NCBI GenBank assembly: GCA_025457865.1
Contig: JALOTP010000012.1
Coordinates: 1,443-65,442 of the forward strand
DNA length: 64,000 nt
Direction of reading: 5' to 3'
From: Thermoplasmatota archaeon
GTDB lineage: Archaea > Thermoplasmatota > Penumbrarchaeia > Penumbrarchaeales > Penumbrarchaeaceae
Below the pieces are notes generated by a model. It had not been told where the DNA came from. It did no database searches and saw only the letters and a list, made by a program, of their open reading frames with translations. The position numbers were made by a program, and so were the translations under genes. Positions 1 through 50,002 of the stretch are shown piece after piece (position 1 is the first letter of the stretch; every line of letters starts with the position of its first letter).

Positions 1-2193
1 GGCAACCTTTCGGCGGAGGACAGCAAGGGGAGATCGTTGGAGGAAGGAGATTGGATGAGGGGCGGTGACACCATACACCTATTTGGTCTTGCCAGGGCCT
101 ATGGTGACGCGGCCATACCAACATATATCAAACCGCCCGAGATAATCAAGATAGCCATAAAGGACCAGACCGGTGCGGTCTTCCTTTCCCAGAGCGGTCC
201 CGACCTTGATACTATGATCTATGTGGACCCGATATATCGCGAGATGGAGTATAAGCTCCTCTTCATCAATGTGACCAGCACAAACGATAAGTCAGATGCT
301 GCCATAAAGGTCTATTATGAGAACGGTTTCAACATCCTCATAGATTCCGACAATCCGGGTCTGCCGCAGGCGCTACAGGTCCTCCCGGACGGGCTGAGCG
401 ACCAACCGTCGAATTTCGATGATGACAGGCAGGTCTATCTGAAGTTCGATGATGCCCCGGACCAGTCCTCAGGGGTCAATAATTATTACATATCCGTCAA
501 CAGGCCCAAGAAGGATGCAAGGAACCCCATATCCCTCCCCAAGGGAAGCGGGAACATACAGCTGATAGACAACCTTCCCGAGGGCGTGTCGCGGATATAT
601 GTTTGGGCAGAGGACGTCGTGGGGAACACCGGCAACGATATCTTCATTGATGTCATGGTCGACCTTAGCGGTGTCATATTCTCTGACTTCTACCCTGTGA
701 CGGGAGTATGGCTGAGCACATTGAAGCCGACCTGTCAGATATTCATCAACGATACGGCGACGGGAGTGGACCCGTTCACAATAGAGTACGAGGTAGCCAC
801 CACCAAGGTGGGATTGGTTGGTAACTGGATGGCCGTTCAGGATGCCTATCTGCCCGGGACATCGCTTCGTGTCGTCATAAGGCCACTGCTGAAGAACGGC
901 AAGGACAACTGGATAAGGTTCCGCGCGAAGGATGTGGCCGGCAACGGTCCGACGGAGTCCGAGCCATACAATGTGTGGGTCGATGCCGAGGCACCAAAGG
1001 CAAAGCTGACCCAGCCCGATGAGAAGATCTATCATCCTAACCCATATCAGGTAGTGAAGATCCGCATGGATGATGGCCAGTCCGGGATAGATGCCCAGTC
1101 CATTGAGTACAGGCTCACAACAAGGGGACTGACGAAGTGGACCCCTTGGAAGGCCTATAGGGAGGGACTGAACGGAGCGACCATAACCGTAGAGCTCCGA
1201 GAGGTGTTCCGGATGGGTTCCGACAACTATGTTCAGGTAAGGGCCAGGGATGTCATAGGCAACCTTGTGGTCTCTCCCATCTACAATGTGAAGATCAATA
1301 CGATCCCGGTGCTCGTCATAACATCGCCCAATGAGGGGGATGACTATCGTGAGGACCAGGATATCGTGTTCGACGCATCCGGTTCGTATGATGTGGACGG
1401 GGACGGACTGCCGTCCATAACATGGATCGCTAGCGATGGGAAGACCCAGACCCCCATAGGAGAGAACACAGCCCAGGTCATAAGCAACCTCAAGCCTGGG
1501 ATGTGGACCATAACAGTGACCGCCAAGGACAAGGTGGGCAACGAGGTCATGAAGTCCTTCTCCCTTAATGTCATTCCGCAGCCACTACCCCCATCACAGC
1601 TCGATAAAGACCTTGACGGTATGCCGGATTGGTTCGAAAAGAAATTTCAGACCAAGGTCGATGAGAAGGACGAGATGGAGGACCCCGATAATGATGATTT
1701 CGTCAGCCTCTATGAGTATCAGAACCTGACCAATCCTCAGGACCCGAGGAGCCACCCCCCAATATATCTAGAGAACGAAGGTGAGGATGACCTGAGCCCG
1801 TTCTCCAAGACGATGTGGCCGATCTGGGCCCTTCTGGCCATCCTTGTGATTGCCATAATCGTAGTGATGGTCATTGCAAGGTCGAAGCAGGACAGGGCCG
1901 TAAAGAGGATCAAGGCCGTGAGGAACATGAGGAGGATCATGCCAAGTGTCTCTTGGGACCAGATCACCACGACGGCATATATTGCTCCGATGACACAGGG
2001 AGCGATGCTGCCCGGAGCAGCCGGGCCAGCTCTGCCGACGGCCACCCCCATGGTACCGTCCGACAGGACACTGCCGCCGGCCCCCGAGGCCGCTGTTCAG
2101 GCACAGCCCGCAGCAGAACCGGCACCAGCACCCGCTGGAACGTTCCAGGCCGCCCCTGCGCCTATGCAGTACTCTCCGCCTCAGGCCCAGTGA
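1..2193 (+). CDS. Large membrane-anchored extracellular protein, 5'-truncated by window edge (Ig/FN3-like and PKD-like domains, DxDxDG Ca-binding repeats, C-terminal TM helix, Pro/Ala-rich tail)
   Basis: Frame open from base 1; repeated 'RAKDVAGN/RARDVIGN' Ig-like ends; 'FDASGSYDVDGD' PKD-like motif; 'DKDLDGMPD'; hydrophobic 'WPIWALLAILVIAIIVVMVIA'. Confidence 0.8.
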   Translation, partial: GNLSAEDSKGRSLEEGDWMRGGDTIHLFGLARAYGDAAIPTYIKPPEIIKIAIKDQTGAVFLSQSGPDLDTMIYVDPIYREMEYKLLFINVTSTNDKSDAAIKVYYENGFNILIDSDNPGLPQALQVLPDGLSDQPSNFDDDRQVYLKFDDAPDQSSGVNNYYISVNRPKKDARNPISLPKGSGNIQLIDNLPEGVSRIYVWAEDVVGNTGNDIFIDVMVDLSGVIFSDFYPVTGVWLSTLKPTCQIFINDTATGVDPFTIEYEVATTKVGLVGNWMAVQDAYLPGTSLRVVIRPLLKNGKDNWIRFRAKDVAGNGPTESEPYNVWVDAEAPKAKLTQPDEKIYHPNPYQVVKIRMDDGQSGIDAQSIEYRLTTRGLTKWTPWKAYREGLNGATITVELREVFRMGSDNYVQVRARDVIGNLVVSPIYNVKINTIPVLVITSPNEGDDYREDQDIVFDASGSYDVDGDGLPSITWIASDGKTQTPIGENTAQVISNLKPGMWTITVTAKDKVGNEVMKSFSLNVIPQPLPPSQLDKDLDGMPDWFEKKFQTKVDEKDEMEDPDNDDFVSLYEYQNLTNPQDPRSHPPIYLENEGEDDLSPFSKTMWPIWALLAILVIAIIVVMVIARSKQDRAVKRIKAVRNMRRIMPSVSWDQITTTAYIAPMTQGAMLPGAAGPALPTATPMVPSDRTLPPAPEAAVQAQPAAEPAPAPAGTFQAAPAPMQYSPPQAQ

Positions 2194-3897: not shown

Positions 3898-6102
3898 TCA
3901 AGAGAAGAATGAATCGATCACGGATTCGAGGGGCCTTCCAGGTATGGTCCGAGGGTATGCTTCTGGCGGCAGGAACTTCAGGTACCTCTCATCGGAAAGC
4001 CTCTTCTCCATCATCACTATGACGGAGCGGTCGCTCTCCGACCTGGTGGAGCGGCCAGCCGCCTGGAGCACCCTGTTGACCGCGGGATAGACGTATGCGT
4101 ACTCATCACCCTTGACCGCACCGAACTTGCCACGGTAGAGCCCCCTTAATGCCTTTGTCTCAAGTGTGGGCGGGGCGAATGGAAGCCCTATGACCAGGAC
4201 TCCGGAGAGGAGGTTGTCCTTGTAATCCACCCCTTCCGAGAGTGACCCCCCCATTACGGCCAGTAGAAGGGCCCCACCCCTTTCCTTGGACCTTTCCAGC
4301 TCCCGGATGATGCCATCCTTCTCCTGGCGCCCCATCTGCCTTTCCTCGACGAGCACCTTCTTGGGGCAGCCCCACAGGTTCTTCTTGACCTCGTTCATAA
4401 GCCCGTAGGAGGGAAAGAATGCGGCCACGTTCCCCGGGAACCTTCCTGTCAATGATACGACCCTCTCGCCCGTAACCCTGAACATGTTCTCGTTCCTTGA
4501 TGTGTATGCGGTCGTTACGGACCCATCGAGGAGGACCAACCTGTTCTCCCTCGGGAACGGGGAGGGATAGACCCGCTCCATCCTCCTGTCCCTTGGAACA
4601 CCGAGGACGTCACCGAACATCCCGGGGGGGGAGAGCGTCCCGCTCATGATGATAGATGCCCGGCAGGACCTGAGGACGGGGGCAGAGATGTCCGAGGGGT
4701 CCAGGTCCTTGTATGACAGCCTTAGGGATTCCACGCTCCTGCCGTCCGGGACCTGCAGGAAGAGCAGATGCGACGGTCTGAGCTCGAAAAGGCCCTCGAG
4801 ATGGTCTGAGATCAGTAGCAGCGGGTCCTCGTCCTCGGGCAGGCCGCGCCTCTTGGATGCATCGATGAGGAGGTCCGGTAGGGCCACGGGGTCCAGAGGC
4901 CTATCAAGGGCACCCTCGACAGCGCTCTTAAGCTCCGAAATGAAGGCCTTTTTATCAAGTTCCAGCTCCCAGGGCCCCCTCACGTCCTTTCCGGCCTTAC
5001 CAATGAGCAGGTCCCTAATGGCCGCAAGTGGCAGGGAGAGGGTGGGTGTCCCCCTGACGATATCTATGGCGTCCTGGACGAGCCGAAGGGAGAGGTCGTT
5101 CGATCCCTGAGAGCGGATCCTGTCGGGGAGGTTATGCCCCTCATCGACTATGACCATTATGTCCGAGATATCCTTCCCGATCCCAGAAAGGACCATTGCG
5201 GACAGATCGGAGAAGATGTGGTTGTAATCGCAGATGAGCACGTTCGCTTCCCTGGCGGCCTCAAGTGCGGCCTTATGGGGGCAGACCCTCATCCTCGCGC
5301 TCTCATCGACTATCCAGTTGACATCGTGGACCTCTGAGAGGATGGCCTGGACCAGGGTCCGGGACGGAGTTTTACCGTAAGGGCAGGTCTGGTCCTTCGT
5401 CTGTATCCTGCAGGCGAAGTTGAAGCTCGAGTGCGGGAGGTGCGATATTTCCCTGGGGCACATCGATTGTTTGGATGTCATGTCAACTACCTTGAGGGCC
5501 TTCCTGGTCCTGGCCTTCAACCTCCTCATGGTATCGACCGCTATGGAATGCTGGGACTGTTTTGATGTTAGGAATGTGACAAGTTTTTCCTCCTCTAGGG
5601 CGACCTCCAGGAAGGCCGATAGGGAGGCAGCGGTCTTTCCAAGTCCCGTTGGCACGTTCGCAAGCAGGCATATGCCCTTCTCCGCGGACGTCTTCGCATC
5701 CTGCATGAACTCGCTCTGACCAGGTCTTACCAGATCAAAGGGGAAGAAGTCAGGTGCCTTGAGCACGGCCGTCCGAGCCTCTGCATCCTTGACCTCAGGA
5801 CCCACCTTCATGGACCGGAAGGGGACCGAGTCCTTCCTGTTAGGTGCACATTCTCCCTCGTGCTCACCTTTCCTTCCGTGAACGAACCGCTCTCCGAACC
5901 TGGAGCTCTTAGGGCTCACTCCCCTCTTCAGGGCGAACCTGTCGCAGCCGTCCCTCTGCTCGAGGCCCGTTTGCTCTGTTCTCTGCAGCGGGGTAGAGGC
6001 ACCAGAGTGCGAAGGCCCGCATCTGGGGCAGACCCTTAGGGCCTCACCGCCGGACATGTCGGTCCTCAAGAGGGACCCGCATCTCTCGCAGAAGGGCTTC
6101 AT
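3898..6102 (-). CDS. XPD/Rad3-family Fe-S DNA helicase with N-terminal zinc ribbon
   Basis: RPGQ Q-motif, PTGLGKT, four Fe-S Cys, DEGHNL, SGTLSP, SEGVDY, QAAGR; start chosen at MKPFCERCG (alternative 6141). Confidence 0.9.
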   Translation of the reverse strand: MKPFCERCGSLLRTDMSGGEALRVCPRCGPSHSGASTPLQRTEQTGLEQRDGCDRFALKRGVSPKSSRFGERFVHGRKGEHEGECAPNRKDSVPFRSMKVGPEVKDAEARTAVLKAPDFFPFDLVRPGQSEFMQDAKTSAEKGICLLANVPTGLGKTAASLSAFLEVALEEEKLVTFLTSKQSQHSIAVDTMRRLKARTRKALKVVDMTSKQSMCPREISHLPHSSFNFACRIQTKDQTCPYGKTPSRTLVQAILSEVHDVNWIVDESARMRVCPHKAALEAAREANVLICDYNHIFSDLSAMVLSGIGKDISDIMVIVDEGHNLPDRIRSQGSNDLSLRLVQDAIDIVRGTPTLSLPLAAIRDLLIGKAGKDVRGPWELELDKKAFISELKSAVEGALDRPLDPVALPDLLIDASKRRGLPEDEDPLLLISDHLEGLFELRPSHLLFLQVPDGRSVESLRLSYKDLDPSDISAPVLRSCRASIIMSGTLSPPGMFGDVLGVPRDRRMERVYPSPFPRENRLVLLDGSVTTAYTSRNENMFRVTGERVVSLTGRFPGNVAAFFPSYGLMNEVKKNLWGCPKKVLVEERQMGRQEKDGIIRELERSKERGGALLLAVMGGSLSEGVDYKDNLLSGVLVIGLPFAPPTLETKALRGLYRGKFGAVKGDEYAYVYPAVNRVLQAAGRSTRSESDRSVIVMMEKRLSDERYLKFLPPEAYPRTIPGRPLESVIDSFFS

Positions 6103-6177: not shown

Positions 6178-6945
6178 TTACCCGAGGACCTCCAGGTGCA
6201 TCCCGCCCTCTAACCTGTGGATCGACGAGCTGACACCGAAGGCCGTTCTGATGTTCTCGGGCGATAGGACATCCTCAGGAACGCCCATTGACACGACCTT
6301 GCCCTCCTTGAGGAGGATGGCCCTGTCGCAGAACCTCAGGGCCGTGTCAAGGTCATGGAGCACAGCGGCGACCGCAAGTCCCTCACCCCTGCCAAGACGT
6401 CCGAGCGTTCTCATTATCGAGAGCGCGTGTCGGACGTCCAGGCCTCTGGTCGGCTCATCCAGGAGCAGTGCCTGGGTCGATTGGGCAAGGGAGCGGGCTA
6501 GATAGACCAGCCTCCGCTCCCCGCCGCTGAGTTCGGACATCTGTCTCTCCCTCAGCTGGAGTATACCGGCCCTTTCAAGGGCCTCGGTTACGGCAGCGGA
6601 GTGACCGTTCCTGCCGTTGCGCCACACTCCCATCCAGGGATAACGCCCCATCGTTACCACCTCCCCCACCTTGAAATCGAACCCTGGCTCGGTCTCCTGC
6701 GGGACCACAGCGATCCTCCTTGCAACGTCCCTGGCGGGTATGGCCCCTATATCGCATCCATCGAGCTCAACGACCCCCTCGAACGGCTGGATAGAACCAT
6801 AGAGGCATCTGAGGAGCGTGGTCTTCCCAGAACCGTTTGGCCCCATGATGCCCAGGAGCTCCCCTTCACGGACAGAGAGGTCAATTCCGTCCAGGACCGG
6901 GGCGGATCTGGAATAGCCGGCTGTCAGCCCGGAAGCCCTGATCAT
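6178..6945 (-). CDS. Cobalamin/iron-siderophore ABC transporter ATP-binding subunit (BtuD/FecE-like)
   Basis: GPNGSGKTT, LSGGE, LLDEPT, VLHDL; start set by ATGA overlap with the permease. Confidence 0.9.
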   Translation of the reverse strand: MIRASGLTAGYSRSAPVLDGIDLSVREGELLGIMGPNGSGKTTLLRCLYGSIQPFEGVVELDGCDIGAIPARDVARRIAVVPQETEPGFDFKVGEVVTMGRYPWMGVWRNGRNGHSAAVTEALERAGILQLRERQMSELSGGERRLVYLARSLAQSTQALLLDEPTRGLDVRHALSIMRTLGRLGRGEGLAVAAVLHDLDTALRFCDRAILLKEGKVVSMGVPEDVLSPENIRTAFGVSSSIHRLEGGMHLEVLG

Positions 6946-25175: not shown

Positions 25176-28100
25176 TCATTTCACCTTTTTGAGGGTCTGC
25201 AAACGGTTATATCGTGGAAGATAGAGACGGTAAACGGAGGTTAGGATGAAGATGGCGGAGTATGCGGAGAAAGCTAGGAGTATCATTATGAGCAAGATGA
25301 ACTCCCTTATGGAAGGGATATTTATCAGGAAGACCGCGGTCATGCCCATGACCATCGTGGCCGTCGCCTCTATGAATGACCATCCCGAGGTCTCTGCCGC
25401 CCAGACCACGCCCTCGATCTGCATGTTCTTCTGACGGATCCTCTCGGTTATGTGTATGGAGAAATCGACCCCTGTTCCTGCTATGATCGAACCGATGAGG
25501 GCTGTGAAGAGGTTCAGGTCACCTGAGAACATATTGTCCTCGGGGCCCCATATCAGCTCACCGAACTGACCGACACCGAAGATAGCGACATACTGCCAGA
25601 AAATGACGAGCGTCACAGGGATCATGGTAATGAGGGCCACCCTCCATGACCTGAAGAACAAGAGCAGTATCAGGAAGATCATTATCCATGCAGTTATCGT
25701 GGATTGGTTAGATTTCTCGACTATGACCTCATTGACCGCAACAAGGACCTTGCCGAATCCCGAGAGGGGTGATGCCGTGACACCACCTCCTTCTTTGGAT
25801 GAGACGATGAAATCCCCTTCAGTGGAAATTGCCCGATCGACATTGTTAACGACCCTCTCGGTATCGATTATGTCCATATTGGGCATGTTCATGTAAACTA
25901 TCGTCTTCGAGTAATCATCATTTACGAGCATTCCCTTGATCTCAATACCAAGGGAATTGTAGAAGATGTTGACTAGAAAGACCTTAAGGTCCTCTTTCAG
26001 GATAGCTTGTGCCCAGGAGCTGTCATCAGGAACGTTGTTCCAAGCAACCCAGAATGATTTCTTAACGACGTTACTTCTTACCCATTGGTCGAACAGCTCG
26101 GCAGCATCTTCTGAGATCTGGGCGGCCCTTATCAAGAGCTCCTGATAATAAGGTGTATTGGTAAAATCAGGGATCTGGACCATTTTCATAATATCCACTA
26201 TTGATACGCCCTGAGCGTTCTTAAGGCCCTCGTCCCCTTCGGTCCCGTTCCCGTTTATGGCCGTCATCAAACGCTCTAGCTTGATGAGCACTGCATTGTC
26301 TTTCATGCTGTCATCGATAGCATCGTGCCTGCCATCCTTATCGATGTCCAAGGAGGGTGATCCCCTCACCAGCATGAGCCCTATCTGGCCCGAACCGAAG
26401 GTATCTGACTGCTCCGCCATCTTCTGGACCACTGGTTCATCCGCGGGGGAGAGCATGATATAGTCCATGTTCGCGGTAACGACCGATAGTCCACCGACCT
26501 CTATGTCGGTCAAAGGAATGGGCGACGGTGGTGAGAGCGCTATCGAGAAGATGGCAAGGATGAGAGCGCCTATGATTATCTTCCTGCTGTGCTTTATCGG
26601 GATCTGCCCTATCCTCTTTGAGACAGGGGACACGGTCTGGCCACCGTCGGCCTTGGGGGATTTCTTATAGTTCAGCCATATCACAAGCGTAGGTGTGATG
26701 AGGATGGTCGTCACATAGCATGCCATGATACCAGTGGACAGCCCGAATCCGAGCACCTGCATCGTAGGCATGTTGACGGTCAGCATGGAACCGAAGCCGA
26801 AAGCGGTGGTGGCCGCGCTCAGGAAGATCGCCCTACCCGTCGTTTTCAGGGCGTATCGGATCCTCATCTCCTTGTCCGGAATAGAGGCGCTCTCTTCGGC
26901 ATATCTGTTGGCAATGTACAGGCCGTAGGCTACTCCGAGCGCTATCAGTATAGGGGCGACCAGTACTACTTGAGGGGTCAGGATGGGAAGGAAGATCCCC
27001 ATCATGCCAAAGGAAACTATCAGTGAGAAGAGTATCGGAAGCAGTGTTATGAGCCATATCTTCAAGGTCCTATGGAAGATGAGGAGGGAGGCACCCACCA
27101 TCAGTAGGGCCCAGGGGAAGACGGTCACCATCTCCCTCATCGTTCTCTGTGAGATCATCCTAGCAAGGGGTGTAGGGCCTGTCAGGGTCATCCTGCAGTG
27201 GACCTCTCCCCGGTCGTACCTCCTTTCCCACTGCTTCGTGGTATCCTTGCTACCCGGCCTCACGCCCGGGTCTACGAAGTAGGGTGCTATCTTATCCTCG
27301 ATATTGGTGATTAGCTTGTCCTGGTCCACCTTCTTGGAGAGCCCCATGAGTATCAGGGCGGAATCGTAGATGCCATCATTGTTGATATCCGCAACAAGGG
27401 ACCCGATCTTCTCAGGTCCTATGGCATTGAAGAACTGGTCGATGAGGTTTTGATCCGTAGGTATGGAATAATTGCCCGTTAACTGGTCAGGCAGAGAGAA
27501 TTGAACCAGTTCCCTGGGCAGCTCATTGAGGAAGGCCACGGAGATGGCATTGGATGCATTGTGCAGCGTCTTAATTAGGGTGGAGATGGAGAAACAGAAG
27601 ATTATCCCATCAACGGACCCTTTATCGGTCTTGTTGAAGTTCAATGCCTCTTCGATATCCGAGATCTCCTTAAGGACAGAATAGTCCGTGATATTGGTCT
27701 CATCCGTTGGATCGTACTTATTCGGGGTTTCTATGAAGATGGTCGCTAGGTCCGTCGACCAATCGACCTTCATCTCGGTAAGTACCTTCTCGGCATCCGA
27801 GCCGAACGGGAGATATACCTCGAAATCCCCCCTGATCTTCTGCTGAAGATTGGGTTTCACATCCTCCCCAGCTAGCTTCTGGGGAAGATAGTCAGGCCCG
27901 ATTATTCCCATATAACCAATAAGAAGGCATACTACGATGGTAATGACAAAAATGGGTCCCCTGAACTTTAAAATCCCCTCCATGAGGGTATCCATGGATT
28001 TTGATCGGAAGATCCTCTCCGAATAATTCTCGCTCTTATCATCTAGCTCCTTGATCCTTCTTCCCGTCTCCCTGAGAAGGATCTTTGCCTTCCTGGTTAT

Positions 28101-28259
28101 CTCTGGTGTCCTATCACCTAGTTCTGTAACGACCTTGTCCAATGTCTCCTCGACATCTGCACCTGTGCTGGGAGCAGGTCCATCGGTCCTCTCTGGTACC
28201 TTTGGTCCTATCCCACCCCTTTGGGGGCCTTTCCTCCTTTCCTCGTCAGACCAGGGCAC
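25176..28259 (-). CDS. RND/MMPL-family membrane transporter
   Basis: Twofold 1+5 TM architecture; LTGPTP, GRAIFLSAATTAFGF, GTGVDFSIHITER. Confidence 0.85.
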   Translation of the reverse strand: MPWSDEERRKGPQRGGIGPKVPERTDGPAPSTGADVEETLDKVVTELGDRTPEITRKAKILLRETGRRIKELDDKSENYSERIFRSKSMDTLMEGILKFRGPIFVITIVVCLLIGYMGIIGPDYLPQKLAGEDVKPNLQQKIRGDFEVYLPFGSDAEKVLTEMKVDWSTDLATIFIETPNKYDPTDETNITDYSVLKEISDIEEALNFNKTDKGSVDGIIFCFSISTLIKTLHNASNAISVAFLNELPRELVQFSLPDQLTGNYSIPTDQNLIDQFFNAIGPEKIGSLVADINNDGIYDSALILMGLSKKVDQDKLITNIEDKIAPYFVDPGVRPGSKDTTKQWERRYDRGEVHCRMTLTGPTPLARMISQRTMREMVTVFPWALLMVGASLLIFHRTLKIWLITLLPILFSLIVSFGMMGIFLPILTPQVVLVAPILIALGVAYGLYIANRYAEESASIPDKEMRIRYALKTTGRAIFLSAATTAFGFGSMLTVNMPTMQVLGFGLSTGIMACYVTTILITPTLVIWLNYKKSPKADGGQTVSPVSKRIGQIPIKHSRKIIIGALILAIFSIALSPPSPIPLTDIEVGGLSVVTANMDYIMLSPADEPVVQKMAEQSDTFGSGQIGLMLVRGSPSLDIDKDGRHDAIDDSMKDNAVLIKLERLMTAINGNGTEGDEGLKNAQGVSIVDIMKMVQIPDFTNTPYYQELLIRAAQISEDAAELFDQWVRSNVVKKSFWVAWNNVPDDSSWAQAILKEDLKVFLVNIFYNSLGIEIKGMLVNDDYSKTIVYMNMPNMDIIDTERVVNNVDRAISTEGDFIVSSKEGGGVTASPLSGFGKVLVAVNEVIVEKSNQSTITAWIMIFLILLLFFRSWRVALITMIPVTLVIFWQYVAIFGVGQFGELIWGPEDNMFSGDLNLFTALIGSIIAGTGVDFSIHITERIRQKNMQIEGVVWAAETSGWSFIEATATMVMGMTAVFLINIPSIREFILLIMILLAFSAYSAIFILTSVYRLYLPRYNRLQTLKKVK

Positions 28260-28353
28260 CTGTCCACCAGCTCCTAGTAGAAATTGATGGGTGTACAGCA
28301 GATAACGGTTTTATATTGTTTTCCTGGGGTAGGGCAGTTCAAAGGTCCGAACA

Positions 28354-28617
28354 TCATTCGACGTTCTTCCTTGCCATGGTGGACAGAACGTAGCCAAGGA
28401 TGATTGAGAGTATCGTACCCAAACCCAGCCCCATCAGGACCCCGTATTCGATCCTGAGCTCAAGGGCATCCGTTGGGAACCTCGTTACATAGATGGCCCC
28501 GATCGAGAAAGGTATAACTGCCATAGCTATCAGGAGGGTGCTGTACAACCACCATGCGGCAGGGCCTAGGACGACCCGCTCTTTGCTATTCGACAGCTTC
28601 TCGGTTTCTGCTGGCAT
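28354..28617 (-). CDS. Small membrane protein
   Basis: Two hydrophobic helices; AT-rich TATA-like element upstream. Confidence 0.6.
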   Translation of the reverse strand: MPAETEKLSNSKERVVLGPAAWWLYSTLLIAMAVIPFSIGAIYVTRFPTDALELRIEYGVLMGLGLGTILSIILGYVLSTMARKNVE

Positions 28618-28734
28618 ATAGATGACCTTGAAGGGCCGGTGGGAGAAAAAGAGGGGGTTTATATATAGTTTCCCCGGTGGAAGGGGTCCTTGTCCCGGAA
28701 TTGGATATAGGGTGGATCGGGTGGGTGGCCCAGC

Positions 28735-28959
28735 TCACATGCAATACCTGCCGCTCTTGAAGAGACTATCGTAGGACATCATGTTACTGTCCATCTCCGG
28801 CTCGGTCTCCTCGTGCGTCTCAAGGTGGTAGAGCATCTCTACAAGGACGTTGACCATCTGCCTCAGTTCCCTGACCTCGGAGCGAAGGTCCTCGATTGAG
28901 CGGAGCAGCTCTTCCCTGTTGGGTTCTTCGTGCCTCTTCTTCTCTACCGAGGGGTCCAT
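28735..28959 (-). CDS. Small coiled-coil hypothetical protein (74 aa)
   Basis: AGGTGA SD before ATG at 28959; heptad 'LRSEVRELRQMVNVL'. Confidence 0.65.
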   Translation of the reverse strand: MDPSVEKKRHEEPNREELLRSIEDLRSEVRELRQMVNVLVEMLYHLETHEETEPEMDSNMMSYDSLFKSGRYCM

Positions 28960-29118
28960 CGTTCTCTCACCTGCAGAAGGTCTTACCTGAGATGACAACA
29001 TACTTACTAAGCAGAGGCGCGTATTTCTACCTTTTGGTACGGGCATTTCAACGATTAGGCATAACCAAAGAATTGACTGCTATCGCTATTAATACCCATT
29101 TCACCATATCATGGGAAC

Positions 29119-29961
29119 ATGAAGGAGATGAATACCCTCTCAGTGGAGCTGGTCCAAAGGAAGCATTGGCGGTTGGAGCTCGAGAGGAACCTGGAAACGG
29201 TGATCGGATCGATACGGGCCTCGACTGCCGATCTGCTCGTGTTCCCGGAGATGTTCCTCACGGGCTACTCCCTGGGTGATGAGGTCTTCGATATGGCCCT
29301 TTCCTTGGAAGATGAGGCCGTGTCAAGGATGAAAGGTGCATCATCCGAGCACGGAAAGCACATAGTTATCGGTCTGCCGTTAAGGTCAGAAGAGGTCAAG
29401 GGGCAGGTGCACAATTCGGCGCTTGTAATATCACCGGATGGTATCATCGGACGCTACGACAAGATGCACCTTGTGGACTTCGGTCCTTTCGAAGAACATG
29501 CGTATTTCACACCTGGCAGGGACCCGTTGATAGTGGATATCCTTGGATGGAAGATAGGGGTGATGATATGTTATGACATCTTCTTCCCCGAACTGACCAG
29601 GTACTATGCCCTAAAAGGCTGCGATGCGGTCATCTGCATCTCGGCGTCCCCTTCAATGACAAGGTATTTTTTCGAGGGGGTCATGACCGCAAGAGCCATC
29701 GAGAACACAATTTACCTTCTGTATTCGAACATGGTTGGCGTTGATGCAAGGATGGATTTCTGGGGGGGTGGGGCTATCATAGGACCAAGGGGAGAGACGG
29801 TCGCAAAAGGCCCCTATTTCGATGAGGCATCCATCATGGGTAGTATTGACCCCGAACTGTTATCGTCCGCAAGAAGGAACAGGCCTACCATCCGGGATGC
29901 CAGGCCTTCTATCTTCAGGGAGCTGGCCCGCATGGATGAGATCCGGGACCAAAACGATTGA
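29119..29961 (+). CDS. Carbon-nitrogen hydrolase (nitrilase superfamily)
   Basis: VFPEM, YDKMHL, ICYDIFFPE (E-K-C triad), RAIEN. Confidence 0.92.
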   Translation: MKEMNTLSVELVQRKHWRLELERNLETVIGSIRASTADLLVFPEMFLTGYSLGDEVFDMALSLEDEAVSRMKGASSEHGKHIVIGLPLRSEEVKGQVHNSALVISPDGIIGRYDKMHLVDFGPFEEHAYFTPGRDPLIVDILGWKIGVMICYDIFFPELTRYYALKGCDAVICISASPSMTRYFFEGVMTARAIENTIYLLYSNMVGVDARMDFWGGGAIIGPRGETVAKGPYFDEASIMGSIDPELLSSARRNRPTIRDARPSIFRELARMDEIRDQND

Positions 29962-29962
29962 T

Positions 29963-30354
29963 GATGGTGCGGGCGCCGGGACATCTGGAGGGTCCAATAA
30001 GTGACGATAAACCAACTCCAGATGTCCAGCTAAAAAGATAGTATCAAAAAATAATACTTTTTAGAGTATTAGATCAATGTCAAGAACCATTTTACGAGAA
30101 CATAGAATGATCGACGAAAGTAAAACGGATGAAAAATCACTTCGTGATTTTCCAAGTCTTTGTCCTATGGGCCAAAGATGGTGCGGGCGCCGGGACATAT
30201 GGAGGGTCCAATAAGTGACGAAAAACCAGCTCCAGATGTCCAGGAAAAATGAAAAATAATTTAAATGCCATTTTTCCGTGTATGATCTATGTAAAGCACC
30301 ATTTTACGAGAACATAGAATGATCGACGAAAGTAAAATGGTGCGGGCGCCGGGA
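29963..30354 (-). repeat. tRNA-Gly-linked tandem units: two extra copies of the tRNA 3'-terminal 17 nt, each with hairpin-rich conserved blocks
   Basis: TGGTGCGGGCGCCGGGA at 29965, 30179 and 30338 (tRNA); 67-nt block 29963-30029 vs 30177-30243 (3 mismatches); 40-nt block 30086-30125 identical to 30298-30337. Confidence 0.93.
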
Positions 30355-30414
30355 TTTGAACCCGAGTTCCTAGCTTGGCAAGCTAAAGTGATGACCAGTC
30401 TACACTACACCCGC
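30338..30414 (-). tRNA. tRNA-Gly(GCC), CCA encoded
   Basis: Reverse complement GCGGGTG...TTAGC-TTGCCAA-GCTAG...GGTTCAAATCC...CGCCCGCACCA folds as a cloverleaf. Confidence 0.97.
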
Positions 30415-30446
30415 ATGGACCGGGGAAGTGGTCAAGGTAGTTCCCG

Positions 30447-30460
30447 TTTAAAAATCTTTC
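30447..30460 (-). promoter_or_regulatory. BRE/TATA promoter of tRNA-Gly
   Basis: GAAAGATTTTTAAA on the minus strand, about 33-45 nt upstream of the tRNA 5' end. Confidence 0.6.
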
Positions 30461-30538
30461 ATAGAGCAAGAAGATGGTCGGCCCTGGTCATGGAAAGAGG
30501 TGAAGGTTTAATGTCCTGTTAGTAACTTAGGTCCTCCC

Positions 30539-31252
30539 ATGATGGCAGATGCCTTCGTGAGCCGGAAGCTGGCTCTCGTAACGGGAGGGTGCAGGAACCT
30601 GGGGCTCGAGATATCCAGGGCGCTATTGTCATGCGGTCACCAGGTGATTGCCACGACCCGGGATGCCAGGACATTTACGGAGCTCGGGGACACCTTGTCG
30701 AAGATCGATGTGATACAAGCGGACGTATCGACAGAAGAAGGGGTGGATAGGACCTTTGAATATATTCGGGGAAAGGACCTACCTATAGGTATCCTTGTCA
30801 ATAACGCATCAAGTTTTCCAAGGGGGCCCTTGTTATCCCTAGATGTTAAAGAGTTCCGTCATGCATACGATAGCACCGTAATGTCCGCGTTCATGTGCAT
30901 AAAAAAAGCGGTCCCTCTGATGAAAGTGGTGGGCTGGGGCAGGGTGATAAACATAGGAATGGCAGGGGCCGACAACGTGAGAGGCTACAGGGATGTCGCA
31001 GCACATGCCTCTGCCAAAACCGCATTATCGGTCCTAACGCTCTCGCTCGCTGCCGAACTCGAGGGTACTGGTTTAACGGTGAATATGGTCAATCCCGGCC
31101 CTATCGAAAGAGCGGGATTGACCTCCAAAGAAAGAGAACGTCTAAGTTCCATATCCCCTGCAGGGAGGTTGACCAGGAGCGGAGATATTGTCGGGCAGGT
31201 CATAGAGATGGTCCAAACAGACATCAATGGGACACTATCCACGGTGCTATGA
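30539..31252 (+). CDS. Short-chain dehydrogenase/reductase
   Basis: TGGCRNLG, LVNNAS, HxxxK in place of YxxxK, VNMVNPG. Confidence 0.85.
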   Translation: MMADAFVSRKLALVTGGCRNLGLEISRALLSCGHQVIATTRDARTFTELGDTLSKIDVIQADVSTEEGVDRTFEYIRGKDLPIGILVNNASSFPRGPLLSLDVKEFRHAYDSTVMSAFMCIKKAVPLMKVVGWGRVINIGMAGADNVRGYRDVAAHASAKTALSVLTLSLAAELEGTGLTVNMVNPGPIERAGLTSKERERLSSISPAGRLTRSGDIVGQVIEMVQTDINGTLSTVL

Positions 31253-31333
31253 AGTCCCGATCACATCAATGGGATGGGATATCCCTTCGTTCGTTCCATT
31301 TTATACATTTTCTTGATAATATTAAAATAATCG

Positions 31334-32257
31334 GTGCATTCTGGACATCCTGTGCTATTGGCCTTGCTGGGCACCCTTGTCGGTCTTGCCCTTCTCATCA
31401 TTGGAGCCAACTTCCTTGTGGACGGAGCGGCAGCTCTGGCCAAGAAGATAGGTATAAGCGGTCATGTGATAGGCCTTACGCTTGTTGCAGCGGCCACATC
31501 ACTTCCAGAGCTTTTCACATCGACCGTAGCAACGTTCAGTGGCGAGTACGATATCGCTGTTGGCAACATAGTCGGTTCGAACGCGGTTAATATCTCCTTG
31601 ATACTTGGGATAGGTATACTCATCCAGCCTATAAGGACCAACAGATCGGCCAAGAGGGATAGTATCTTCATTTTAGGTGTAACGGTCCTGCTCTTCTTCC
31701 TGGCTATCCAGGGTATAGAGTTTTGGGAGGCGTTGATATTCCTTGGCCTTTACATTGGGTATACCATCCTGATCTTCCGGTCCAAGGATATGGCCAAGAT
31801 AGATGTGGAGGTAAAGGAGCGGAAACCCTGGATATTGATTTTGCTCATAATCCTTGGCATAGCCTTCCTGTCAATAGGGTCCCCCCTACTTGTTCGGTCC
31901 GCGGCATCATTGGCCGTAGAGGTTGGGGTCTCGGCAGCGGTCATAGGTTCGACCCTTATCGCGGTCGGAACATCGTTCCCTGAGCTCCTTACCAGTATCA
32001 TGGCGTCGGTGAAAGGACATGAAGGGATAGCGTTCGGCAATGTCTTCGGATCCAATATTTTTAATATTCTAATGATACTAGGAGTCAGTGGTATTATCAG
32101 GCCACTTGTTGTGAACGATTTTTTCATTTTTGCGCTCATACCGGCGCTCATCCTACTCCAACTCCTCGGTTCAATCCTTGCATTTGGTAGGATGGGGAGG
32201 AAGGAAGGTGTCATTCTAATATTGGGTTATGTGATATTCCTAGCGCTAATGTTCTGA
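31334..32257 (+). CDS. Na+/Ca2+ (cation/Ca2+) antiporter, YrbG/NCX family
   Basis: Alpha repeats ATSLPE...GNIVGSN and GTSFPE...GNVFGSN; start codon uncertain. Confidence 0.92.
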   Translation: MHSGHPVLLALLGTLVGLALLIIGANFLVDGAAALAKKIGISGHVIGLTLVAAATSLPELFTSTVATFSGEYDIAVGNIVGSNAVNISLILGIGILIQPIRTNRSAKRDSIFILGVTVLLFFLAIQGIEFWEALIFLGLYIGYTILIFRSKDMAKIDVEVKERKPWILILLIILGIAFLSIGSPLLVRSAASLAVEVGVSAAVIGSTLIAVGTSFPELLTSIMASVKGHEGIAFGNVFGSNIFNILMILGVSGIIRPLVVNDFFIFALIPALILLQLLGSILAFGRMGRKEGVILILGYVIFLALMF

Positions 32258-49592: not shown

Positions 49593-49728
49593 ATCATTTC
49601 CTGGCCAGCAGTAAGAGAGATGCATATTTCAACTGTTCGATTCATGGACAATGGAAATGGCGACTGGGTCAAAGGGAAGAGCAGATTTAATAATGGACCT
49701 GACATTTGACCCGCTGCCAACGCACCTT

Positions 49729-49810
49729 GCGAGGGTAGCCAAGTGGTTAACGGCGACAGACTCAAGATCTGTTCCTTAGTGGTTCGTCGGTTCGAATCCG
49801 GCCCCTCGCA
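49729..49810 (+). tRNA. tRNA-Leu(CAA), CCA not encoded
   Basis: GCGAGGG...ACAGA-CTCAAGA-TCTGT, long variable arm, GGTTCGAATCC, CCCTCGC-A; TTTAATA box at about 49686. Confidence 0.97.
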
Positions 49811-49988
49811 TCTCATTTTAATATTATCAAAGAGAGGCCGGATTCGAACCTTGGTTCCTTTGGAACGTTAGCATTGAGAGAGTCAAAAAGTTCCAAAGGT
49901 CTGGAAAATGCCCAAGGCATTTTTCAAAGACGGATCCGGCCCCTCGCATCTCATTTTAATATTATCAAAGAGGGGCCAGTTTCGAATC
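49796..49988 (+). repeat. tRNA-Leu-linked direct repeat (55 nt, period 138) enclosing a two-hairpin insert
   Basis: 49796-49850 vs 49934-49988: first 39 nt identical, 4 mismatches overall; starts with the tRNA 3'-terminal 15 nt. Confidence 0.93.
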
Positions 49989-50002
49989 CCTAAAGAAGAA
50001 TT

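Follow-up and report, generated by a model that had tools for sequence, protein, structure and literature searches.

The tRNA-Gly(GCC) gene of this Thermoplasmatota archaeon is followed, within the window (the whole stretch of DNA analysed, 64,000 nucleotides), by two tandem units that each terminate in an identical copy of the tRNA's last 17 nt. Such units form three modular hairpin families (A, B and C) that stand behind 20 or more tRNA loci of the same genome and are conserved across its taxonomic family. We read both Gly units, tentatively and with slightly less than even confidence, as structured RNA modules of a non-coding, tRNA-linked class that occurs throughout the lineage and is transcribed by read-through from the tRNA gene, an analogue of the tRNA-linked repeats (TLRs) of E. 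coli that is not homologous to them.

Two units behind tRNA-Gly(GCC)

The 64-kb window contains just three copies of the 17-mer TGGTGCGGGCGCCGGGA, at 29965, 30179 and 30338 as the preliminary description had it, and 100 dinucleotide-preserving shuffles contain none, even with one mismatch permitted. Since tRNA-Gly(GCC) lies on the minus strand, this 17-mer is the reverse complement of the tRNA 3' end, ...TCCCGGCGCCCGCACCA; read in the sense of the tRNA, the gene is followed by unit 1 and then by unit 2 (Table 1). The two units share a conserved block D1 (76 nt, 92% identity), a second block D2 (70 nt, 86% identity), a stretch of 40 identical nucleotides, and an inverted repeat, GGACATCTGGAG/CTCCAGATGTCC, with 12-nt arms spaced by 25 nt; conserved block, inverted repeat and identical stretch had all been described before and were confirmed. 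In unit 1, the 5' arm of hairpin H1 consists of the last 12 nt of tRNA-Gly together with the downstream TTTTAC, and the loop contains TCGTCGAT, while the H1 homologue of unit 2 is free-standing. Unit 2 also carries a 55-nt insert of two additional hairpins, the first with arms TCTTTG/CAAAGA and the second with arms GAAAAATCAC/GTGATTTTCC, and this insert resembles the hairpins of family C. The carbon-nitrogen hydrolase gene on the far side of the array is convergent with tRNA-Gly, its stop codon abutting the distal tRNA-end copy.

Table 1. Positions, in window coordinates, of the features at the tRNA-Gly(GCC) and tRNA-Leu(CAA) loci
Feature	Position	Strand	Basis
Carbon-nitrogen hydrolase gene (flank, outside the element)	29119..29961	plus	ORF list; Pfam PF00795, E 4.5e-46
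Unit 2, distal, 214 nt, family A	29965..30178 (read 30178 to 29965)	minus	alignment row GlyGCC_u2; covariance model R1, 113 bits
Unit 2, terminal 17-nt copy of tRNA-Gly 3' end	29965-29981		
Unit 2, H3 arms	29979-29990 / 30016-30027		
Unit 2, H2 arms	30030-30037 / 30057-30064		
Unit 2, H1 homologue, arms	30087-30095 / 30120-30128		
Unit 2 insert, second hairpin, arms	30131-30140 / 30144-30153		
Unit 2 insert, first hairpin, arms	30157-30162 / 30173-30178		
40-nt block identical between units	30086-30125 = 30298-30337		
Unit 1, tRNA-proximal, 159 nt, family A	30179..30337 (read 30337 to 30179)	minus	alignment row GlyGCC_u1; covariance model R1, 106.2 bits
Unit 1, terminal 17-nt copy of tRNA-Gly 3' end	30179-30195		
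Unit 1, H3 arms	30193-30204 / 30230-30241		
Unit 1, H2 arms	30243-30251 / 30269-30277		
Inverted repeat I3 (H1 at tRNA end), arms	30296-30307 / 30332-30343		
tRNA-Gly(GCC), CCA encoded	30338..30414	minus	ARAGORN; Rfam RF00005, 58.1 bits
Short-chain dehydrogenase gene (upstream of tRNA-Gly, outside the element)	30539..31252	plus	ORF list; Pfam PF00106, E 4.3e-32
tRNA-Leu(CAA)	49728..49812	plus	ARAGORN
Family C unit behind tRNA-Leu(CAA)	49810..49990	plus	nhmmer C66:51252-51389 = window 49810-49947, E 1.9e-34; sequence reading

Arrays across the tRNA genes of the genome

The preliminary description had treated the array as a peculiarity of one locus, a view that did not survive: it is a genome-wide feature. 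Inspection of the regions downstream of the other tRNAs, a check proposed there, found that the tRNA's own 13-nt 3' core (at most one mismatch) is repeated within 2.5 kb downstream in 18 of the 37 tRNAs identified by ARAGORN, and upstream in none of the 37; an array is likewise present at the intron-containing tRNA-Ser(GGA), which ARAGORN missed. Loci hold one to four or more units of 109–219 nt, without ORFs. Forty-one of 44 nhmmer matches to four unit models lie in tRNA-linked arrays, all on the tRNA strand, an array counting as linked if it begins at a tRNA 3' end or meets a contig end with a known tRNA core; linkage was judged without an ARAGORN run with intron search, which returned only 22 genes. 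Orphan units that lack a tRNA exist in this genome (C7:340-549) and in another (G050), flanked by tail copies and distant from any tRNA; on C7, where 8.4 kb separate the orphan array from the tRNA-Val array, the intervening genes look ordinary and include no recombinase, so that an island finds no support there. A run of T5 or longer follows 5 of 20 tRNAs with arrays versus 7 of 17 without, which is no clear difference (the Val-GAC row being mis-anchored) and counts against the reading of the units as read-through RNA modules. The MAG assembly contains no 5S gene.

A single plan underlies the modules. Each begins just past the tRNA 3' end with a U-rich spacer and a complement of the tRNA tail, comprises two to five hairpins, and ends in a new copy of the T-stem 3' strand, the acceptor 3' strand and the discriminator, with CCA where it is encoded. 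The complement fits each tRNA: ATGGTGC answers tails in ...GCACCA, ATGGCGC the ...GCGCCA of Ser, and AAGTGC the CCA-less Leu-TAG, and in family B it spans the full 13 nt. One and the same unit body can stand behind tRNAs whose tails differ, and the modules are shuffled. Every hairpin contains a T4–T6 run in its sense strand and, the stem being symmetrical, in its antisense strand as well, placed within the stem and not 3' of it. A second tRNA of the window, tRNA-Leu(CAA), is likewise followed by a copy of its 13-nt core and illustrates family C: an AT-rich spacer is followed by the T-arm complement (GGCCGGATTCGAACC), two hairpins, the tRNA-end copy TCCGGCCCCTCGCA and a partial repeat that comprises an incomplete second spacer and anti-T-arm.

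Several other descriptions of this layout were tried and rejected. Degenerate duplicates of a whole tRNA would carry a copy of its 5' strand, but the sequence in the Ala units, GTGGACC, has A opposite U70 where the 5' strand of the tRNA has G3, and so complements the 3' strand. Nor does the hairpin of tail and complement resemble a bulge-helix-bulge splicing motif, the one example read by hand (Ile) being a continuous 14-bp helix without bulges. Internal unit promoters were dismissed as well: by eye, the AT-rich loops and spacers hold no conserved box at a tRNA-like distance, the box of real tRNAs here lying about 35–45 nt before the mature 5' end.

Stem covariation and signs of selection on RNA

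The hairpins are maintained by compensatory change. Across 19 family A units of this genome, which stand behind 11 tRNAs, 16 of 24 pairs show compensatory changes, and 95.8% of cells are paired, a value that 0 of 500 shuffles reach, versus 75.9% after shuffling; with the partner slid, pairing falls to 30–59%. Family A units of other genomes give the same picture (20 of 24 pairs covary; 94.8% of cells paired versus 70.7%), as does family B1 (15 of 23 pairs; 93.8% versus 75.9%). Read on the tRNA-sense strand, the stems contain more G·U than A·C, 37:17 in family A and 28:7 in B1, a moderate bias among compared rows that are related. One G·U pair is conserved in eight of nine B1 units, and a C(UUCG)G tetraloop appears in all four B2 units, on two different covarying stems. 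The array as a whole folds with a z score of -8.12 in the sense orientation and -5.14 in the antisense. Reading the units as RNA modules must reckon with the fact that covariation and conserved loops would also be expected of DNA hairpins recognised by a recombinase.

Conservation and turnover among relatives

Covariance model R1, built for the Gly/Leu/Ala/Ser/Glu type, matches all 23 of the other genomes of the family, spanning seven genera, with 3–21 matches in each. A same-strand tRNA precedes the unit at 18 of 19 sampled loci from other genomes, and in a second sample a tRNA stands directly upstream in 9 of 15. The tail copies track each genome's own tRNA even where it differs from that of the present genome (G000), as with Gly-TCC and Glu-TTC. 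The composition of the arrays turns over fast, even within the genus: at the Gly-GCC locus G000 has two units, its congener G001 one and G002 two, while the Leu-TAA arrays differ among all three, G001 having one extra tRNA-proximal unit. Such turnover would sooner be expected of repeats that are selfish or neutral than of RNA genes that are fixed and, like the orphan units, counts against the interpretation as RNA modules.

Assembly and copy number in metagenomes

An artefact of assembly, a collapsed or chimeric repeat in the MAG, is one alternative, and two observations point that way: many arrays lie at contig ends (C24/C87, C37/C108, C91/C26), so that the repeats evidently break assembly, and 30041-30164 is without contig cover in both metagenome runs compared, X2 and X3. 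Against it stand the 23 other genomes with like architecture and a 548-nt contig from X2, an independent sample, which is 100% identical to 30165-30712 and so spans the junctions of unit 1, tRNA and flank; two further X2 contigs cover 29758-30040. We consider an artefact barely credible. In run X3, precisely the 159-nt unit is missing from one contig, in which 30177 is joined to 30337 with 18 nt common at the joint, and another contig retains it, which indicates copy-number polymorphism inside one sample. The check on assembly and copy number that had been proposed thus affirmed the arrangement of unit 1, tRNA and flank in one run and revealed a varying number of units in the other. A pattern scan of metagenomes for units matched 13 contigs.

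A possible route from tRNA gene to module RNA

Were the units RNA modules, RNA polymerase would read past the weak oligo-T signal behind the tRNA, and the modules would be transcribed in the sense of the tRNA as 3' trailer RNA. Since tail and U-rich spacer at the end of a module are those of the tRNA, the same termination and 3'-end-forming steps would set the module 3' end and free discrete hairpin RNAs. Arrays gain and lose units, an outcome seen directly; the means may be recombination or slippage that involves the repeated tails and H1 blocks, and this may also hold the tail copies to the sequence of the resident tRNA by concerted evolution. The CGTC motif conserved in the loops hints at a bound protein, and the tail complement at pairing with read-through precursors. 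At the RNA level, one library contains an adapter-flanked fragment, 30305-30424, that begins 10 nt ahead of the tRNA and extends 33 nt into its trailer (four mismatches, depth 3.5), its 5' end agreeing with the distance of the TATA box upstream of tRNAs here; this is a weak hint of expression, as the fragment could reflect DNA carry-over. The other contigs of the RNA runs X23 and X24 probably come from other organisms, since they cover the tRNA only and carry mismatches. The proposal in the preliminary description of co-transcribed small RNAs ending in ACCA stands as the best fit to the covarying hairpins, the G·U bias, the UUCG loops and the 33-nt trailer fragment, its transcription and processing remaining putative.

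A bolder version, which we think improbable, holds that the modules yield tRNA-specific 'shadow' RNAs, released by tRNA end-maturation enzymes and presenting cognate acceptor and T-stem sequence: in family B as a 12–13-bp helix matching the acceptor/T stack pair for pair, and in all families as a tRNA-identical 3' tail. Such RNAs would be candidates for isoacceptor-specific decoys or regulators of proteins that recognise tRNA ends, be they synthetases, tRNA-targeting toxins, 3' nucleases or the CCA-adding enzyme. Another possibility is that the built-in complement captures and inactivates read-through precursors. If true, they would constitute a tRNA-by-tRNA regulatory layer that is not known from any domain and offer a testable function for the 45-year-old puzzle of the TLRs.

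Mobile DNA, island scars and transcription punctuation

The main rival to RNA modules is miniature, non-autonomous mobile DNA (cassette-, CIME- or MITE-like) that uses the tRNA 3' end as attachment or duplication site and is served by a recombinase in trans, the hairpins being its DNA or single-stranded DNA recognition structures. The unit-number polymorphism in X3, the differing arrays of congeners, exemplified by the extra unit at tRNA-Leu(TAA) in G001, the like bodies with different tails and shuffled modules, and the orphan units bordered by tail copies with no tRNA nearby would all follow from mobility, as would the start of the identity block at the border of T-loop and T-stem, reportedly one class of tRNA-targeting integrase sites (a point ascribed to Williams, 2002). 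Weighing on the other side, six-frame searches of the whole genome (89% complete) found no Y1 transposase (PF01797) and no TnpB-type domain (PF07282), although the controls matched, no match to reverse transcriptase (PF00078), which a retro- or SINE-like element would need, and a single tyrosine recombinase, on a different contig; no integrase lies beside the Gly array, whose neighbours are the CN-hydrolase and the SDR. Among viral contigs, exact-pattern scans, which miss divergent copies, gave 13 pattern matches of which none was confirmed by covariance model, and a degenerate hairpin pattern had no match; a viral or plasmid origin was rejected on these scans. Units of 109–219 nt without ORFs, oriented invariably as the tRNA, speak against mobility too, the G·U bias and UUCG tetraloop favour RNA, and a transposed unit would carry the wrong tail and complement, whereas nearly all units match their own tRNA. 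We therefore regard mobile DNA as possible but rather unlikely. Growth of the array by repeated insertion, as the preliminary description had suggested, would be compatible with the varying copy number and the differing congener arrays; recombination between tails explains these equally well, and a mobilising enzyme was not found in the search of this genome. Two kindred ideas were also discarded, a TnpB/omega-RNA system with a hairpin scaffold, a 13–17-nt tail as 'guide' and the T-loop as target motif, given that the genome search returned neither TnpB-type domain nor Y1 transposase, and the primer-binding site of a retro-element, given that the complement of CCA-less tRNAs runs into genomic flank and not CCA and that reverse transcriptase had no match.

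Decayed att scars of large, integrase-bearing islands once resident at tRNA-Gly would also explain the duplicated ends, as integrative elements do duplicate tRNA 3' parts, with 44-bp repeats flanking islands of about 9–23 kb (PMC9897764). Ordinary elements appear at other tRNA genes here, with ORFs after tRNA-Pro(TGG) and tRNA-Cys; from sequence reading, the former (C21) is putatively integrase-like and the latter (C36) serine-recombinase-like. At the orthologous locus of G001 and G002, however, nothing but one or two small units separates the tRNA from that same hydrolase gene, so the island whose decay had been named as the refuting scenario is not seen there; the units are, moreover, a conserved covarying family in 23 of 23 sister genomes, free of ORFs and of an adjacent integrase. 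Island scars are already contradicted and, in our estimate, very unlikely. It is also doubtful, to a lesser degree, that the modules are terminators or insulators that keep the strong transcription of the tRNA, and that of the convergent gene, out of neighbouring genes, the tail copies being by-products of duplicating a 'tRNA end plus terminator'. This would make sense of the T4–T6 runs on both strands of every hairpin and of the way the Gly array fills the gap between convergent tRNA and hydrolase, with its abutting stop codon. Archaeal termination, however, is not known to require hairpins, only oligo-T; the T-runs sit within stems, not after them; tRNAs without arrays terminate without modules, T-run strength showing no clear difference; and the CGTC loop motif, the tRNA-fitted complement and the exact conservation of the tail copies are left unexplained. 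In E. coli, a TLR of rrnB is placed between two terminators (PMC8144298), a position that would suit punctuation.

Comparison with known systems

Among known arrangements, the att-site repeats of integrative elements resemble the arrays in placing a direct repeat of the tRNA 3' part, starting near the T-loop, downstream of an intact gene; repeats of this kind left by integrative elements are said to have been described by Reiter in 1989 and Williams in 2002. Here, however, the repeats enclose 109–219 nt of conserved covarying hairpins in tandem, whereas att elements are kilobases long and carry an integrase, and the relatives' orthologous loci hold units conserved across the taxonomic family and no island. 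Among bacterial intergenic hairpin repeats that Y1 transposases mobilise, REP/BIME elements with their RAYT, and the palindromes derived from IS200/IS605, share with the units a short, non-coding, multi-copy, tandem hairpin form with compensatory stem changes, but the units occur only at tRNA 3' flanks, in fixed orientation and fitted to the tRNA; the dispersal at unrelated sites in both orientations that marks MITEs and REP-RAYT systems is unlike the distribution found here, with 41 of 44 unit matches tRNA-linked on the tRNA strand. The tRNA-like 3' modules that RNase P and RNase Z cut (mascRNA and MEN-beta type, Rfam RF01684) offer a further comparison, as family B has a predicted 12–13-bp helix that copies the stacked cognate acceptor and T stems. 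In B1 the acceptor-like helix, closed by the unit's own 5' end, is predicted at 11–13 bp; set against pairing with the upstream tail by flank extension, the upstream partner is favoured in five units, disfavoured in one and tied in six (n=12). Genes for both tRNase Z and RNase P RNA are present in this genome. The archaeal units differ in having neither T-loop nor D-arm, and in family A, to which both Gly units belong, only six tail nucleotides plus the encoded CCA can pair, so that no tRNA-like acceptor end results; in the scanned region RF01684 matched only the real tRNA, below threshold.

An Rfam scan of 28000-32000 with all 4,227 families, at E up to 10, returned the tRNA and two chance-level matches only. 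Rfam includes the rtT family (RF00391); no match to it was found, and we therefore regard the archaeal units as an analogue of the TLRs and not a homologue. In E. coli K-12, as set out in PMC8144298 (citing Egan and Landy 1978 and Rudd 1999), the TLRs include the tyrT/rtT repeats and rrA/rrB/rrF; that paper states that three are produced by terminator read-through, with processing in at least some, and that the TLRs, known since 1978, have no known function. Both sets lie directly downstream of a tRNA gene (in E. coli also an rRNA gene) on the same strand, are non-coding, have one to five units per locus at many loci per genome and a unit of about 150–180 nt, and end each unit in a copy of roughly the last 17–19 nt of the upstream gene (18–19 bp in E. 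coli, 17 nt here). They differ in density, with 10 loci there against about half of the tRNA genes here, and in that the archaeal units, known here from sequence, form three covarying modular hairpin families, each with a tail complement, are conserved across a taxonomic family and have tails that co-evolve with the tRNA. In practice, the arrays interrupt MAG assembly where tRNA genes stand, and an annotator could take them for scars of integration or for incomplete tRNA genes; with dozens of units in each of many genomes, they provide a comparative set for structure, processing sites and binding partners. The TLR layout is thus found in an archaeal lineage, in denser, covarying form, in at least seven genera and with signs of RNA-level selection, suggesting that the phenomenon is general, either a recurrent by-product of tRNA gene ends or a functional class of trailer RNA.

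Repeat units behind tRNA-Gly(GCC)

The preliminary description reported three copies of the 17-mer TGGTGCGGGCGCCGGGA, at 29965, 30179 and 30338, and these are borne out, against 0 matches in 100 shuffles with one mismatch permitted. Because tRNA-Gly(GCC) lies on the minus strand, the 17-mer is the reverse complement of its 3' end, comprising the last T-loop base, the 3' strands of the T stem and acceptor, the discriminator and an encoded CCA. The two units behind the gene each end in this tail, and re-analysis reproduced the features described earlier: a conserved block, 76 nt long and 92% identical between the units, an inverted repeat whose 12-bp arms are 25 nt apart, and the identical 40-nt block. 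Unit 2 carries a 55-nt insert of two additional hairpins, similar to the modules of unit family C, which parts its first hairpin, H1, from the tail. A carbon-nitrogen hydrolase gene converges on the tRNA, and the array occupies the interval up to the hydrolase stop codon; on the opposite flank is a short-chain dehydrogenase gene.

The assembly is corroborated by a contig from an independent metagenome run, 100% identical over unit 1, tRNA and flank. Copy number also proved variable: within metagenome run X3 one contig omits exactly the 159-nt unit and another contains it. The orthologous locus holds two units in the window's own genome (G000), one in its congener G001 and two in a second congener, G002, the lone G001 unit being a recombinant across the repeated H1 block. 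At Leu(TAA), too, the three congeners have arrays unlike in number and content.

Features of the window, other G000 contigs (C6 to C81) and genome G050
Feature	Contig	Position	Strand	Details
tRNA-Gly(GCC)	window	30338-30414	minus	ARAGORN; Rfam 58.1 bits
Unit 1	window	30337->30179	minus (tRNA sense)	159 nt, ends in 17-mer
Unit 2	window	30178->29965	minus (tRNA sense)	214 nt, ends in 17-mer
Metatranscriptome fragment	window	30305-30424		10 nt leader, tRNA, 33 nt trailer
tRNA-Leu(CAA)	window	49728-49812	plus	second tRNA with array; downstream 13-nt core copy
tRNA-Leu(CAA) together with its family C unit	window	49728-49990	plus	
tRNA-Trp(CCA)	C6	~6604-6799		intron ~120 nt
Orphan array piece (L137)	C7	340-549		Val-type tail
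Alternating hairpins	C18	~1000-1150		
tRNA-Pro(TGG)	C21	3933-4008		
tRNA-Pro(TGG)	C81	231-305		
tRNA-Cys	C36	15336-15408		
Family A-like unit (L123)	C31 of G050	~4170-4390		Leu-type tail

Arrays across the genome

The same unit type occurs on ten contigs of G000 (2.7 Mb, 108 contigs, 89% complete), a genome that encodes tRNase Z and an RNase P RNA of archaeal type. A census used as queries the last 13 nt of all 37 tRNAs called by ARAGORN, a core made up of the discriminator and the 3' strands of T stem and acceptor; 18 of the 37 had at least one additional copy of this core (at most one mismatch) within 2.5 kb downstream, and none of the 37 had an upstream copy. The observation made at tRNA-Gly(GCC) is confirmed and extended: tRNA-linked repeats are not confined to a single locus in G000. 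An intron-containing tRNA-Ser(GGA) overlooked by ARAGORN also has an array behind it, and three arrays run across contig ends (Glu, C24 to C87; Leu-GAG, C37 to C108; Met, C91 to C26). Presence of an array is independent of an encoded CCA, which is found in 14 of 37 tRNA genes (7/20 with arrays, 7/17 without). Separately, the tRNA-Trp(CCA) intron shows, by eye, box C/D-like motifs, as in tRNA-Trp introns of other Euryarchaeota.

Of 44 nhmmer matches of the unit-family models, 41 belong to tRNA-linked arrays and share the strand of the tRNA; the other three are two matches to an orphan piece on C7 and a partial hairpin-module match on C18. The orphan piece, with no tRNA in front, comprises one complete 150-nt unit and a truncated 128-nt unit. 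It is on the same strand as the tRNA-Val(GAC) array, 8.4 kb further downstream, and the genes between the two are of surface-protein-like and ABC-transporter type and include no recombinase. On C18, with no nearby tRNA, GGAAAATC...GATTTTCC hairpins, the module of family C units and of the unit 2 insert, alternate in tandem with ATGTCGAGAC...GTCGAGACAT hairpins.

Three families of hairpin chains

All units are chains of hairpins, and three families can be distinguished in G000: A, behind Gly, Leu, Ala, Ser and Glu tRNAs and including both focal units; B, behind Val, Ile, Pro and Met tRNAs, in forms of ~128 nt (B1) and ~150 nt (B2); and C, behind Arg and Leu-CAA tRNAs. A family A unit opens with H1, whose loop contains TCGTCGAT and whose 5' arm, in compact units, consists of ...GCACCA from the tRNA followed by TTTTnC; a conserved linker leads to H2, a stem of variable sequence with an A-run/T-run, and H3, with a stem of 11-12 bp and a conserved loop (TTGG..TCGTC.AT...GGAC), directly adjoins the tail copy.

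Every family also has an AT-rich, U-rich spacer of ~25 nt and, immediately after it, a sequence complementary to a portion of the 3' third of the tRNA in front. This complement covers 6-7 nt and some flank in family A, all 13 nt in B and the T-arm in C. It is matched to its tRNA (ATGGTGC opposite GCACCA, ATGGCGC opposite the Ser end GCGCCA, AAGTGC opposite Leu-TAG, which lacks CCA). In Ala units an A of the complement faces U70, whereas the 5' strand of the tRNA itself has G3 there; the stretch is therefore a genuine 3'-strand complement, and a copy of the tRNA 5' end is ruled out. In family B the predicted pairing has two possible partners, the upstream tail or the unit's own downstream tail. 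Upstream pairing gains 1-6 base pairs into the flank and is better in 5 of 12 units, worse in one and tied in six; downstream pairing would form a 12-13-bp closing helix copying the tRNA acceptor/T stack. Behind tRNA-Leu(CAA), the complement is predicted to pair with the entire T-arm (15 bp) and 4 nt of flank (TCTC/GAGA), so that CCTCGCA, the 7-nt 3' strand of the acceptor, would bulge out; a partial second spacer and complement follow.

Distribution and tail identity

For the 3' module of family A, a covariance model (R1) matched all 23 other genomes of the taxonomic family, spanning seven genera, with 3-21 matches per genome, and at E <=0.001 only 3 of 37 genomes outside it; a family B1 model (R2) matched 15 of the 23 sister genomes and none of 13 genomes from other families of the class. 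Among sampled loci, a same-strand tRNA was detected directly upstream in 18 of 19 for R1 and in 9 of 15 for R2. We inspected the three outside matches and one from a looser threshold: G025 and G029 have diverged units behind tRNA-Gly genes, carrying those tRNAs' own tails; G050, from another family of the phylum, has a single unit between protein-coding genes, with the tail CCCTTCCCCCGCACC on both sides and no tRNA called there by ARAGORN; and the G024 match lies at a contig end. The units therefore probably extend past the taxonomic family in diverged form.

Tail copies track each genome's own tRNA. The Gly-TCC tail reads CCCGACACCTGCA in other genera, against CCCGGCACCTGCA in G000, and the Glu tail varies likewise (CCCGATGGGAGCA versus CCCGACGGGAGCA); for both tRNAs the units carry the resident version.

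Candidate readings: RNA modules or miniature DNA elements

We tentatively read the units as structured trailer-RNA modules: read-through from the tRNA gene would produce them, the copied tail and the U-rich spacer would set their 3' ends, and recombination between repeats would shape the arrays. In a metatranscriptome assembly, one adapter-flanked fragment (4 mismatches, depth 3.5, DNA carry-over possible) covers tRNA-Gly(GCC) with leader and trailer, its 5' end consistent with the spacing of a TATA-like box upstream of G000 tRNAs. The main rival, which seems rather unlikely to us, is that the units are miniature non-autonomous DNA elements with the tRNA tail as attachment or duplication site; the two readings are not mutually exclusive. 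Stem conservation suits both, as covariation by itself does not distinguish RNA from DNA hairpins. Among 19 G000 family A units behind 11 tRNAs, 16 of 24 predicted pairs show two-sided changes and 95.8% of cells are paired. Column shuffles give 75.9%, none of 500 reaching 95.8%, and displacing the partners by 1-3 columns gives 30-59%. Alignments from other genomes, whose fitting to the models somewhat favours the structure, give 20/24 pairs and 94.8% versus 70.7% for family A, and 15/23 and 93.8% versus 75.9% for B1. Other sequence features lean towards a tRNA-sense RNA: on that strand stem G·U outnumbers A·C by 37:17 in family A and 28:7 in B1, one G·U pair is retained in 8 of 9 B1 units, a C(UUCG)G tetraloop is present in all four 150-nt units of family B, on two different covarying stems, and the focal array folds with z -8.12 in sense and -5.14 in antisense.

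As for mobile-element machinery, whole-genome six-frame searches of G000 (89% complete), with controls detected in all four, found no Y1 transposase, TnpB-type domain or reverse transcriptase, and a single tyrosine recombinase, on a contig other than the focal array's. Two pattern scans of viral contigs, checked by covariance model, found no units, and no Rfam family matches them. Nor does the array appear to be the decayed ends of a large integrase-bearing island, a scenario raised in the preliminary description: the orthologous locus in G001 and G002 contains no large island. Ordinary integrative elements do seem to be present elsewhere in G000, behind tRNA-Pro(TGG) on C21 and tRNA-Cys on C36, and these candidates look quite unlike the hairpin-unit arrays. 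The two tRNA-Pro(TGG) copies differ by a single D-loop base and have nearly identical upstream flanks, with an integrase-like ORF behind one and a family B array behind the other; they look like alternative forms of a single locus within the population, one carrying an integrated element and the other lacking it. Behind tRNA-Cys, a very AT-rich stretch precedes an ORF that is serine-recombinase-like by eye, probably an integrated element, and no hairpin units occur there.

Comparison with bacterial tRNA-linked repeats

A full-text search of a limited literature collection found no description of such repeats in archaea. For E. coli, a published account (PMC8144298) describes ten loci with one to five tRNA-linked repeat units each, 22 in all; the repeats were first observed in 1978 and are without known function, and three of them arise by terminator read-through. 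The archaeal units share the layout of the E. coli repeats, but their sequence is unrelated, which makes them analogues of that family rather than members.
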